From assembly GCF_003334335.1 (NCBI RefSeq), contig NZ_QOWQ01000041.1: a stretch of DNA of 39,438 bases. One strand, given 5' to 3'. This document shows, one piece after another, positions 2,875-26,663 of this stretch; position 1 is the first letter of the stretch; each line of letters opens with the position of its first letter. The stretch comes from Escherichia coli. GTDB taxonomy: Bacteria > Pseudomonadota > Gammaproteobacteria > Enterobacterales > Enterobacteriaceae. The position numbers and the translations under genes are program-made. The notes under the pieces are model-generated. The model searched no databases. It was not told the origin of the DNA and worked only from the letters and a program-made list of their open reading frames with translations.

Positions 2875-3381
2875 TTATTTCTTCGCTTCTACGCCATCAG
2901 TTTCAGAGCGAATTAAAAATTTCTCAGTTGTTTGCGGAATATTCTGAATCAGCCAGTCGGCCATTTGCTTTTCCTCATTTAAAATCGCTTCGATGGTTGG
3001 AATTGAAGCTGTATCACCGGCATTTTTTGCTGCTGCTAATAGTGAGGTGTAACAGGCGATTTCAAATTGCTCGAAGACATATCCGCTAATAGAGCCTTTG
3101 ACTATTTCATCAGAAGGGAATATACCACCGATTGACTGCCCAAGCGCAGCCATTTTACTCATGGAATCTTTAATGACTGAACGTGAAATGTCATTACGAT
3201 CAAGAATAGTTTCCAGTTGAACAATCTGGTTTTTGGTTTCACTAAGATGTTGTTCAATACGAGCGCGTAGTTCAGGATAATTATCTATACGGCTGGCCAT
3301 GGATTCAAGCATAGATTCGGCTTGCTTTTCCATTGCGTGGGCGTCACGTAACCAGTCATGATAATGTTCAATACGATTCAT
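2875..3381 (-). CDS. yciE: Ferritin-like DUF892 stress protein YciE
   Basis: 168 aa, MNRIEHYHDWLRDAHAMEKQAE... recognised as E. coli YciE. Confidence 0.93.
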   Translation of the reverse strand: MNRIEHYHDWLRDAHAMEKQAESMLESMASRIDNYPELRARIEQHLSETKNQIVQLETILDRNDISRSVIKDSMSKMAALGQSIGGIFPSDEIVKGSISGYVFEQFEIACYTSLLAAAKNAGDTASIPTIEAILNEEKQMADWLIQNIPQTTEKFLIRSETDGVEAKK

Positions 3382-3426: not shown

Positions 3427-3927
3427 TCAGGCTTTATTTTCGGCTTTCTTATTTACGTTATTAATGGCCAGATCAGTCAGTTTGATGTCGGTGGCCTTTT
3501 CTTCTTCCAGGGTTTCTTTCAGAAGCTTCGCTGCTTTACGGTAACCTAATTGTTCAGCCAGCGTCGCTAATGTCCCGTAACTGGCAATCTCATAATGCTC
3601 GACTTTCTGTGCTGCGGCAATCAGTGCGGCATCACGCACTTCGTTTTTCTCGGTACTTTCGATGACCTCATTAGCTTCTTCAATAAGACCTTCCATTGCC
3701 ACACATTTCATGCGCTTAATTTTCAGGTTCGATTCGGACTCCACAACTTGATCAATACGTTCAATCTGTCCATGAGTTTCCTCGAGGTGCGCATGAAAAG
3801 CCTGACTTAATTTTTCATTTGATGTTGCTCTTGCGAGTTTTGCCAGTGCCCGGGTTAATTGTTTTTCTGCGCTGTAGGTATCTGAAAGCAGGTGAATAAA
3901 TACATCTTCAATGGTCTTCATATTCAT
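3427..3927 (-). CDS. yciF: Ferritin-like stress protein YciF
   Basis: Recognised YciF sequence starting MNMKTIEDVF...; start moved to the ATG with a GGAG Shine-Dalgarno (track ORF extends 16 codons further upstream). Confidence 0.9.
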   Translation of the reverse strand: MNMKTIEDVFIHLLSDTYSAEKQLTRALAKLARATSNEKLSQAFHAHLEETHGQIERIDQVVESESNLKIKRMKCVAMEGLIEEANEVIESTEKNEVRDAALIAAAQKVEHYEIASYGTLATLAEQLGYRKAAKLLKETLEEEKATDIKLTDLAINNVNKKAENKA

Positions 3928-4012: not shown

Positions 4013-4192
4013 TCAGGATTTGCCTGATTTATTACCACCGCTTTGTTGACCGCCTTTTTTACCCGCTTCAGATGCGCGTTGCGGATCATTTTTAAAATTA
4101 CCGCCGCTATGCTGACCGCCTTTACGGCCTGCGTCGGATGCCTTCTCACGGTCTTCGGCGAAATTTCCTGAACCACCACGATGTTCGGCCAT
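4013..4192 (-). CDS. yciG: KGG-repeat general stress protein YciG
   Basis: 59 aa, MAEHRGGSGNFAEDREKASDAGRKGG... with repeated KGGQ(H/Q)SGGN motifs; GGGAGA Shine-Dalgarno upstream of the ATG at 4192. Confidence 0.88.
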   Translation of the reverse strand: MAEHRGGSGNFAEDREKASDAGRKGGQHSGGNFKNDPQRASEAGKKGGQQSGGNKSGKS

Positions 4193-4544
4193 GTTATTTC
4201 TCCCGTTGCGTTGCATTGTTTCATTAATATGAGTGTTGTGTGTCGACACTCATTAAAATTAGTCGCTAATGAGAATTAGTCAAATTAAGCGCAACGAGAA
4301 GATAGAGGGAAAATATATTTTGAGGAACATTCTGGATATATTAACAATTACCTGAGGAATAAGTGACTTAGAGAAAATTATTGATTTTACTGGTGTTATG
4401 TTGCGGGATTAATTTGTTTGATTATATTACTGTTGGGCGGAAAAATGACGTAAGTTGACGTTCGACCGGGGTAAGCGAAACGGTAAAAAGATAAATATTA
4501 AATGAATTTAGGATTTTTCCGGCTTCATTAAAGAAAGTTAAAAT

Positions 4545-4565
4545 GCCGCCAGCGGAACTGGCGGC
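4545..4565. terminator. trp operon terminator (trp t)
   Basis: Stem gccgccag / ctggcggc, 5-nt loop; on the - strand followed by ATTTT immediately after the trpA stop. Confidence 0.8.
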
Positions 4566-4572
4566 TGTGGGA

Positions 4573-5379
4573 TTAACTGCGCGTCGCCGCTTTCATCGGT
4601 TGTACAAAAACTTTCAGTGCCGCCAGCATTTTCTCTGGCTCATTAATATGTTGCTCGATGATTTTAACAATGGCCGAACCAGAAATCGCGCCCGCAGCTC
4701 CTGCATCAATCGCTGCTTTTACCTGATCCGGGGCGGAAATACCAAATCCCTGCAATGGAGGTGCAGCGTTGTACTCTTTCAGCTTCGCAACCAGATGATT
4801 GAGGGGTAACGCGGCGCGGTTTTCTGCGCCGGTCACGCCTGCTCGTGACAGCAAATAGGTGTAACCACGACCGTAAGAGGCTATCTGGCGCAGCAGGTCG
4901 TCATCGGCATTTGGCGGGCAGATGAAGATAGGTGCGACATTATGACGCAACGCGGCCTGGCGGAAGGGCGCGGACTCTTCAACTGGCACATCGGCAACCA
5001 GCACCGAATCGACGCCGACTTTTTCGCACTGGGCATAAAACTCATCAATGCCTTTGTTAAACACCAGATTGGCATACATCAACAGGCCAATGGGAATGGT
5101 CGGGTGTTTCTGGCGAATCAGTGCCAGCATTTCAAAACATTGTGCCGGAGTCACACCTGCCGCAAAGGCGCGCAGAGTGGCGTTTTGAATCGTCGGGCCA
5201 TCCGCCAGTGGGTCGGAGAAGGGGATACCTAACTCCAGCGCGTCAGCACCGGCTTCAATTAGCGTATCGATAATTTTCAATGACTGCTCAATGCCCGGAT
5301 CACCGAGCGTGACGAAAGGAACGAATGCGCCTTCTTTGCGCTCCTTCAACTGGGCAAACAGAGATTCGTAGCGTTCCAT
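4573..5379 (-). CDS. trpA: Tryptophan synthase alpha chain
   Basis: 268 aa, [29 protein letters not shown]...; start overlaps the trpB stop. Confidence 0.97.
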
Positions 5380-23987: not shown

Positions 23988-26663
23988 ATGTCGTCAACCC
24001 TACGAGAAGCCAGTAAGGACACGTTGCAGGCCAAAGATAAAACTTACCACTACTACAGCCTGCCGCTTGCTGCTAAATCACTGGGCGATATCACCCGTCT
24101 ACCCAAGTCACTCAAAGTTTTGCTCGAAAACCTGCTGCGCTGGCAGGATGGTAACTCGGTTACCGAAGAGGATATCCACGCGCTGGCAGGATGGCTGAAA
24201 AATGCCCATGCTGACCGTGAAATTGCCTACCGCCCGGCAAGGGTGCTGATGCAGGACTTTACCGGCGTACCTGCCGTTGTTGATCTGGCGGCAATGCGCG
24301 AAGCGGTTAAACGCCTCGGCGGCGATACTGCAAAGGTTAACCCGCTCTCACCGGTCGACCTGGTCATTGACCACTCGGTGACCGTCGATCGTTTTGGTGA
24401 TGATGAGGCATTTGAAGAAAACGTACGCCTGGAAATGGAGCGCAACCACGAACGTTATGTGTTCCTGAAATGGGGAAAGCAAGCGTTCAGTCGGTTTAGC
24501 GTCGTGCCGCCAGGCACAGGCATTTGCCATCAGGTTAACCTCGAATATCTCGGCAAAGCAGTGTGGAGTGAATTGCAGGACGGTGAATGGATTGCTTATC
24601 CGGATACACTCGTTGGTACTGACTCGCACACCACCATGATCAACGGCCTTGGCGTGCTGGGGTGGGGCGTTGGTGGGATCGAAGCAGAAGCCGCAATGTT
24701 AGGCCAGCCGGTTTCCATGCTTATCCCGGATGTAGTGGGCTTCAAACTTACCGGAAAATTACGTGAAGGTATTACCGCCACAGACCTGGTTCTCACTGTT
24801 ACCCAAATGCTGCGCAAACATGGCGTGGTGGGGAAATTCGTCGAATTTTATGGTGATGGTCTGGATTCACTACCGTTGGCGGATCGCGCCACCATTGCCA
24901 ATATGTCGCCAGAATATGGTGCCACCTGTGGCTTCTTCCCAATCGATGCTGTAACCCTCGATTACATGCGTTTAAGCGGGCGCAGCGAAGATCAGGTCGA
25001 GTTGGTCGAAAAATATGCCAAAGCGCAGGGCATGTGGCGTAACCCGGGCGATGAACCAATTTTTACCAGTACGTTAGAACTGGATATGAATGACGTTGAA
25101 GCGAGCCTGGCAGGGCCTAAACGCCCACAGGATCGCGTTGCACTGCCCGATGTACCAAAAGCATTTGCCGCCAGTAACGAACTGGAAGTGAATGCCACGC
25201 ATAAAGATCGCCAGCCGGTCGATTATGTTATGAACGGACATCAGTATCAGTTACCTGATGGCGCTGTGGTCATTGCTGCGATAACCTCGTGCACCAACAC
25301 CTCTAACCCAAGTGTGCTGATGGCCGCAGGCTTGCTGGCGAAAAAAGCCGTAACTCTGGGCCTCAAGCGGCAACCATGGGTCAAAGCGTCGCTGGCACCG
25401 GGTTCGAAAGTCGTTTCTGATTATCTGGCAAAAGCGAAACTGACACCGTATCTCGACGAACTGGGGTTTAACCTTGTGGGATACGGTTGTACCACCTGTA
25501 TTGGTAACTCTGGGCCGCTGCCCGATCCTATCGAAACGGCAATCAAAAAAGGCGATTTAACCGTCGGTGCGGTGCTGTCCGGCAACCGTAACTTTGAAGG
25601 CCGTATCCATCCGCTGGTTAAAACTAACTGGCTGGCCTCGCCGCCGCTGGTGGTTGCCTATGCGCTGGCGGGAAATATGAATATCAACCTGGCTTCTGAG
25701 CCTATCGGCCATGATCGCAAAGGCGATCCGGTTTATCTGAAAGATATCTGGCCATCGGCACAAGAAATTGCCCGTGCGGTAGAACAAGTCTCCACAGAAA
25801 TGTTCCGCAAAGAGTACGCAGAAGTTTTTGAAGGCACAGCAGAGTGGAAGGGAATTAACGTCACACGATCCGATACCTACGGTTGGCAGGAGGACTCAAC
25901 CTATATTCGCTTATCGCCTTTCTTTGATGAAATGCAGGCAACACCAGCACCAGTGGAAGATATTCACGGTGCGCGGATCCTCGCAATGCTGGGGGATTCA
26001 GTCACCACTGACCATATCTCTCCGGCGGGCAGTATTAAGCCCGACAGCCCAGCGGGTCGATATCTACAAGGTCGGGGTGTTGAGCGAAAAGACTTTAACT
26101 CCTACGGTTCGCGGCGTGGTAACCATGAAGTGATGATGCGCGGCACCTTCGCCAATATTCGCATCCGTAATGAAATGGTGCCTGGCGTTGAAGGGGGGAT
26201 GACGCGGCATTTACCTGACAGCGACGTAGTCTCTATTTATGATGCTGCGATGCGCTATAAGCAGGAGCAAACGCCGCTGGCGGTGATTGCCGGGAAAGAG
26301 TATGGATCAGGCTCCAGTCGTGACTGGGCGGCAAAAGGTCCGCGTCTGCTTGGTATTCGTGTGGTGATTGCCGAATCGTTTGAACGAATTCACCGTTCGA
26401 ATTTAATTGGCATGGGCATCCTGCCGCTGGAATTTCCGCAAGGCGTAACGCGTAAAACGTTAGGGCTAACCGGGGAAGAGAAGATTGATATTGGCGATCT
26501 GCAAAACCTACAACCCGGCGCGACGGTTCCGGTGACGCTTACGCGCGCGGATGGTAGCCAGGAAGTCGTACCCTGCCGTTGTCGTATCGACACCGCGACG
26601 GAGTTGACCTACTACCAGAACGACGGCATTTTGCATTATGTCATTCGTAATATGTTGAAGTAA
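23988..26663 (+). CDS. acnA: Aconitate hydratase A
   Basis: 891 aa; Fe-S ligand cysteines; recognised AcnA. Confidence 0.97.

Follow-up and report, generated by a model that had tools for sequence, protein, structure and literature searches.

An inverted repeat over the transcription start site of the Escherichia coli yciG promoter

Introduction

Several well-known repressor operators, including lac O1, the LexA boxes and the TrpR operator, overlap the transcription start site of the promoters that they control, and the hairpin in the 5′ untranslated region of ompA is a 5′-terminal stem-loop that stabilizes its mRNA. The promoter of interest here is that of the stress-induced yciGFE operon. 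Expression of yciG is RpoS-dependent and silenced by H-NS and StpA, and the operon is described in the literature as poorly expressed and multiply regulated. The promoter of yciGFE(katN), pyciG, is known as sigma-S-dependent, silenced by H-NS, and modulated by YncC/McbR (Beraud et al. 2010, Mol Cell Proteomics 9:2601). A Reg-Seq preprint has also named yciGFE as a candidate target of an osmotic activator with a TCCTAAAAT-type motif.

The repeat described below lies upstream of yciG in a window of 39,438 nucleotides of E. coli DNA (contig NZ_QOWQ01000041.1), to which all positions refer unless another sequence is named. An initial annotation had proposed that it could be either a leader hairpin or an operator of the yciGFE operon. 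It is a real but ordinary sequence feature on the start site of a known promoter, and the hairpin is contradicted; the result matters little beyond the annotation of this one promoter. The features of the locus are collected in Table 1.

Table 1. Features of the yciG locus in the window, with positions relative to the mapped transcription start site (TSS) where applicable.
Feature	Position	Strand	Remarks
Left outer arm, ATGAGTGT	4246-4253	-	-6 to +2 relative to the mapped TSS; mostly untranscribed
Right outer arm, ACACTCAT	4229-4236	-	+12 to +19 of the yciG leader; E. coli-specific
Inner perfect palindrome, GTGTCGACAC	4240-4249	.	-2 to +8; conserved start-site block, candidate operator core
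-35 hexamer, TTGACT	4278-4283	-	16-nt spacer to the -10 hexamer; conserved across genera
-10 hexamer, TAATTT	4256-4261	-	preceded by C (4262), followed by TAA (4255-4253)
pyciG +1	G4247	-	Kim et al. 2012 (PLoS Genet) Table S1; 2 reads
yciG leader, 55 nt	4193-4247	-	CA-rich, essentially unstructured; Shine-Dalgarno sequence GGGAGA at 4199-4204
yciG coding sequence	4013-4192	-	59 aa, KGG-repeat general stress protein; ATG at 4192
yciF	3430-3927	-
yciE	2875-3381	-
trpA	4573-5379	-

The Repeat and the trpA-yciG Spacer

The repeat occupies part of the E. coli trpA-yciG spacer, which is 380 bp long with a GC content of 36%. Its outer arms, ATGAGTGT and ACACTCAT, are complementary at 8/8 positions and stand 9 nt apart. 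The perfect 10-bp palindrome GTGTCGACAC lies within the repeat and can be extended to a 16-mer (4252-4237) in which 14/16 positions match in E. coli. The inverted repeat is therefore seen in the sequence just as it was first described, and in MG1655 (NC_000913.3) it forms a 25-mer at 1,316,072-1,316,096. The accompanying claim that it lies immediately upstream of the Shine-Dalgarno sequence is right as to direction but not as to distance, as a gap of 24 nt separates the end of the right arm at 4229 from the Shine-Dalgarno sequence at 4204-4199.

By itself, the repeat is statistically unremarkable, because the shuffled spacer often yields such palindromes. Among 2000 dinucleotide shuffles of the 380-bp spacer, a perfect 10-bp palindrome arose in 42%, a perfect 8-bp inverted repeat with a loop of 3-20 nt in 13%, and the two together in 4.8%, and 32 perfect 10-bp palindromes occur across the whole window, where 45 ± 6.6 would be expected. 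GTGTCGACAC is present as a single copy in the 39-kb window, where its sole one-mismatch relative, at 26584, lies inside an 891-aa open reading frame. The motif was not found at the promoter of the sigma-S paralog ymdF either, leaving no second meaningful copy in the window or at that promoter.

Immediately past the trpA stop codon, an intrinsic terminator on the minus strand (4545-4565) combines a 9-bp stem containing seven GC pairs with a U-tract; judged by its position, this is the classical trp t. The Rho-dependent terminator trp t′ lies about 250 nt past trp t, and little read-through would be expected at the repeat. A scan for intrinsic terminators and attenuators listed only the element at 4545-4565, and the repeat is followed by AUAUUAAUG rather than by a U-tract.

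Several other elements were observed in and around the spacer. An AT-rich imperfect palindrome containing ATATAT lies at 4329-4348, approximately 82-101 nt 5′ of the yciG +1. The Salmonella locus (L081) carries a perfect TTGTTATTAATAACAA at 1281-1296 and GTCAATTTGAC over the -35 hexamer at 1404-1414. On the minus strand of the E. coli spacer, CCGGAAAAATCCTA at 4509-4522, some 330 nt 5′ of the yciG ATG, resembles the Salmonella RcsB box TAAGAAAACTCCTA (1161-1174 of L081, 340 nt 5′ of the ATG) and also one half, TCCTAAAAT, of the osmotic-activator motif from the Reg-Seq preprint. That motif was rejected as the source of the repeat, being non-palindromic and located elsewhere. Within the leader, positions 4206-4215 (GCAACGCAAC) comprise two tandem GCAAC units, and some E. 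coli strains (loci L090 and L098) have a 10-nt expansion to four such units just 5′ of the Shine-Dalgarno sequence.

Promoter and Transcription Start

A -35 element TTGAC(T), a 16-nt spacer, and C-TAnnnT followed by TAA are conserved in 19 of 22 enterobacterial loci, in a comparison that drew on orthologous yciG-yciF loci from 21 other Enterobacteriaceae and on S. enterica. The C-TAnnnT sequence followed by TAA is the extended -10 pattern of the sigma-S type. A scan with the sigma-70 consensus found no promoter at the locus, and the sigma-S-type promoter was recognized only by cross-genus conservation; it has the conserved -35 hexamer, the C(-13)TAnnnT-TAA arrangement, and a mapped TSS downstream.

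That TSS was published by Kim et al. (2012), whose Table S1 lists position 1,314,114 of U00096.2 on the minus strand with a 5′ untranslated region of 55 nt. Their 51-nt TSS string, ending in ...AATGAGTG, places +1 at G4247 of the window, or 1,316,090 in NC_000913.3 numbering, which is the ninth base past the -10 hexamer and is preceded by a pyrimidine. In Salmonella SL1344, the TSS from SalCom is 1782355 as quoted in a study of RcsB, and the SL1344 coordinates could be anchored by the RcsB box that a table in that study places 340 nt 5′ of the ATG. On this basis, the Salmonella TSS lies 55 nt 5′ of the ATG at position 1446 of L081, which is the second base of GTGTCGACAC; this is likewise the ninth base past the -10 hexamer and within 1 nt of the E. 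coli-equivalent position. One column of the same row in the RcsB table is not self-consistent, which may point to a second Salmonella TSS far upstream.

With the TSS mapped to G4247, the outer repeat runs from -6 to +19 and the inner palindrome from -2 to +8. The repeat thus belongs to the control region of the stress-induced yciGFE operon, as the initial annotation had it, and sits on the pyciG start site itself. The annotation had also named a start downstream of the palindrome as an outcome that would count against a role for it; the published start goes halfway to that outcome, falling within the palindrome. A 78-aa open reading frame on the minus strand (4013-4249) opens with a GTG inside the palindrome, upstream of the ATG of the annotated 59-aa YciG, and this GTG is excluded as a start codon because the mapped TSS is at 4247.

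Conservation and Natural Variants

Comparison of E. coli with S. enterica gave identities of 12/12 in the -35 block, 4/12 in the promoter spacer, 12/12 in the -10 block, 10/10 in the inner palindrome, 2/8 in the right outer arm, 12/27 in the rest of the leader, and 16/20 in the segment proximal to the Shine-Dalgarno sequence. GTGTCGACAC is more conserved than its flanks, which are approximately 33-44% identical, and this holds only for the Escherichia/Salmonella clade. This makes the inner 10-mer an island of constraint, with outer arms specific to E. coli. The conservation check proposed in the initial annotation thus comes out differently for the two parts of the repeat, with the inner palindrome kept in Salmonella and the right outer arm not.

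Of 4723 E. coli genomes, 4311 have an identical 39-nt core (4224-4262), and 411 (∼9%) depart from it by one base. The substitution G4247A, found in the O157:H7 lineage, alters +1 itself and disrupts the inner palindrome as well as the outer stem. The variant T4246C likewise disrupts palindrome and stem, and neither change is compensated. A third variant, C4231T, leaves a G.U pair in RNA and is one-sided. Larger rearrangements are also found at the locus. Strain 600055 (L092) carries an IS1 within the right arm (∼4230/4231) that splits the yciG leader from its promoter, and strain TST3 has an IS1 elsewhere in the trpA-yciG spacer. In ATCC 25922 (L091), yciG is deleted; the promoter, the palindrome, and the early leader are intact, the sequence then jumps into yciF, and a shorter yciF open reading frame is annotated in yciG's place (483 nt compared with 501 in MG1655).

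RNA Folding of the E. coli Leader

If the whole repeat were transcribed, it would fold at -8.9 kcal/mol (z = -3.6), and this stability speaks for the proposal that it acts as an RNA stem-loop, whether as a 5′-end hairpin protecting mRNAs that start 5′ of G4247 or in read-through transcripts from trp. The fold requires bases 5′ of the mapped +1, and the leader that begins at G4247 reaches only -1.0 kcal/mol (z = +1.4), which is weaker than most shuffles. Only 2 reads support the E. coli TSS, and a start at G4251 would give a 6-bp 5′-terminal stem of -6.9 kcal/mol (z = -3.3); however, G4251 is only 5 nt past the -10 hexamer, the more canonical start at G4249 would give a 4-bp stem of -2.7 kcal/mol that is no better than shuffles, and the Salmonella TSS agrees with the downstream position. 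Related genera do carry a covarying leader hairpin, as described below, but pairing between the E. coli arms is not maintained in relatives, given the unconserved right arm (2/8) and natural variants that are one-sided and uncompensated. As for read-through, trp t at 4545-4565 lies upstream of the repeat. An RNA stem-loop is accordingly regarded as an improbable explanation.

Because transcription begins inside the left arm, of which 2/8 bases are transcribed, the 8-bp stem is absent from pyciG mRNA. The leader hairpin of the initial annotation is contradicted by this position of the TSS, by the weak fold of the leader from +1, by the divergence of the right arm in Salmonella, and by the uncompensated variants; it does not hold for transcripts from the mapped start and could be retained only if start-site choice were unusual. 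It should not be annotated in E. coli.

A further candidate pairing, between 4290-4300 and 4200-4210 in the region of the Shine-Dalgarno sequence (11 bp including two G.U pairs, z = -3.65), was rejected, as the first segment lies upstream of the -35 hexamer and, of the 6 other E. coli strains aligned at G4292, 5 have an A. This complementarity is probably fortuitous, and one side of it is outside the pyciG transcript.

Leader Hairpins in Other Enterobacteria

Fifteen other enterobacterial loci have a hairpin of 7-12 bp that is fully inside the yciG leader and starts 12-20 nt past the -10 hexamer (∼12-47 nt past the -10 hexamer as a whole, for example 2671-2693 in L003). These loci represent Klebsiella, Enterobacter, Lelliottia, Citrobacter, Pseudocitrobacter, Leclercia, Trabulsiella, Phytobacter, and Kosakonia, and their stems are genus-specific, with examples including GAUACG/CGUAUC, GAUGC/GCAUC, CGACACU/AGUGUCG, and GAACAUGA/UCAUGUUC. 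Two groups, A and B, were aligned separately, since the right arms were misaligned in a mixed alignment of 16 genera. Counted over the stated stems, pairing amounts to 95.7% in group A, where 2 pairs have both partners changed, and to 93.3% in group B, where this is true of 5 of 9 pairs; 5 of 500 shuffles attained the latter value. In both groups, the pairing collapses once the partners are slid. RNAalifold found no structure in the mixed 16-genus alignment with its misaligned right arms, and a search of Rfam returned no family at the yciG leader, only sub-threshold noise. The yciG leader hairpin of other genera is thus a finding of this analysis and not an Rfam entry.

E. coli and S. enterica are without this hairpin, and their -10-to-ATG distance, at 63 nt versus 68-78 nt, is about 10 nt shorter. 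The covarying leader hairpin is genuine in most other enterobacteria, and E. coli and S. enterica have lost it, a loss that may be one contributor to the differences in yciGFE expression known between species. In the Kosakonia/Phytobacter group, a U-rich run follows the leader hairpin, and the hairpin of this group could be a leader attenuator.

The other genera are equally informative about the start site. In group A, the position equivalent to the palindrome is occupied by a block, GAAC(G/A)AC, that is invariant except at one G/A site and has no dyad symmetry, and a CGACA core at the same distance from the -10 hexamer is common to the E. coli palindrome and many other genera. The group A block is invariant yet asymmetric; therefore, start-site conservation in this promoter family needs no palindrome.

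Start-Site Block or Operator

These comparisons tentatively favor a reading, held with a little less than even confidence, in which the repeat is a composite over the pyciG start that consists of a conserved start-site block whose palindromy is incidental. GTGTCGACAC, at -2 to +8, would be the conserved start-site and initial-transcribed block of pyciG, common to Salmonella, and through its CGACA core it would be the positional equal of the invariant GAACGAC block found in Klebsiella, Enterobacter, and Citrobacter. In this promoter family, selection would act on the start-site block in every clade, whether or not it is dyad-symmetric, and in the Escherichia/Salmonella clade the block would be palindromic by happenstance. 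The right arm would sit where other enterobacteria carry the leader hairpin, and the E. coli sequence remaining after the loss of that hairpin would chance to complement the segment from -6 to +2. What selection maintains may be the sequence around +1, with a role in choosing the start site, in promoter escape, or at the mRNA 5′ end. The positions, the conservation pattern, and the absence of RNA structure are shown, whereas the role of the block and the incidental nature of the symmetry are what we infer, the latter by parsimony.

Two points count against this reading. Perfect conservation combined with perfect dyad symmetry is what a site for a dimeric protein looks like, and by our own estimate the probability that one of about five conserved blocks would be a perfect 10-bp palindrome by chance is a few percent. 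The E. coli TSS also rests on 2 reads.

The first of these points leads to the strongest alternative, in which GTGTCGACAC is the core of an operator for a dimeric repressor that would occlude RNA polymerase in E. coli and Salmonella, which we consider possible although on the unlikely side. The 10-mer has the perfect dyad symmetry expected of a dimeric operator and extends to the 16-mer with 14/16 matches in E. coli, but 10 bp is short and in Salmonella the symmetry does not continue into the flanks. It overlaps +1 in E. coli and Salmonella and is conserved at 10/10 positions amid poorly conserved flanks; nevertheless, the block conserved at this place in other genera is not palindromic, one-base differences in the 39-nt core occur in ∼9% of E. 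coli genomes, and G4247A in O157:H7 breaks the palindrome. GTGTCGACAC stands out as GC-rich against a spacer with 36% GC, and a repressor would suit an operon that is poorly expressed and multiply regulated. On the other side, we found no cognate factor, binding data, or mention of the palindrome in the texts consulted, the reported ChIP-seq motif of McbR in K-12 is ATATAT-like, and the motif does not meaningfully recur, with its only near-match (26584) in an open reading frame and ymdF without it. The operator suggested in the initial annotation therefore keeps its dyad, its overlap with +1, and its conservation in its favor, and no second copy of the motif was found in the window or at the ymdF promoter. 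As a candidate repressor operator on +1 of pyciG in E. coli and Salmonella, GTGTCGACAC is unlikely to be borne out. If it were, it would add an extra, specific layer of repression to the sigma-S, H-NS, and McbR control of yciGFE, and the O157:H7 lineage, with its G4247A change, would represent a naturally occurring operator-down variant. For testing whether yciGFE has an extra regulator, the conserved 10-bp block at +1 offers a concrete and cheap target.

Known regulators were also considered as ligands of the palindrome. The cis elements relevant to pyciG regulation reportedly lie upstream of the promoter. McbR/YncC, a GntR-family protein, is a natural suspect, as it is stated, with reference to Beraud et al. 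(2010), to bind the yciG promoter and activate yciGFE, and as GntR-type sites have a GT-Nx-AC core that is matched by the GT..AC dyad in GTGTCGACAC. An activator or anti-silencer would nevertheless be expected to bind upstream of the promoter and not on +1, the K-12 ChIP-seq motif is ATATAT-like and AT-rich in contrast with the GC-rich palindrome, and the element at 4329-4348 fits an ATATAT-type motif better than the palindrome does. It is very improbable that the palindrome is an McbR site.

The E. coli 16-mer, TGTGT-N6-ACTCA, can also be read as a weak CRP site centered near +2.5 that would repress pyciG, since by inspection it matches TGTGA-N6-TCACA at 7/10 positions. The Salmonella half-sites, AGGGT and ACGAT, match at only 3/10 by inspection, so that the site is not conserved in the ortholog, and CRP cannot explain the conservation because the conserved part falls mostly in the CRP spacer. 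This possibility is barely credible. An informal comparison by eye with consensus sequences gave no fit to sites of the FadR or HutC type of GntR regulator, to the LysR T-N11-A motif, or to the PhoB box.

Comparison with Known Systems

The closest described system is pyciG itself. The locus is the same, the repeat sits on its start site, and TTGACT, cTAATTT-TAA, and the 55-nt leader match the mapped TSSs. The regulators described for this promoter act via upstream AT-rich DNA.

Compared with the lac O1, LexA, and TrpR operators, GTGTCGACAC is similar in its dyad symmetry, its position across +1, and its conservation between species. It differs in having no known cognate protein, a core of only 10 bp, and no second copy found, and, unlike those operators, it has a non-palindromic equivalent in other genera. 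The resemblance to the ompA hairpin is that transcription of the entire repeat would place a stable predicted stem close to the 5′ end, but the yciG +1 is inside the left arm and the stem is absent from the mRNA.

The hairpin of Klebsiella, Enterobacter, Citrobacter, Kosakonia, Phytobacter, and Trabulsiella belongs to the same gene and promoter and is likewise formed by a repeat past the -10 hexamer. The two are distinguished by their placement, as the E. coli repeat starts 3 nt past the -10 hexamer, whereas the stem of the other genera starts 12-20 nt past it, is fully transcribed, and covaries.
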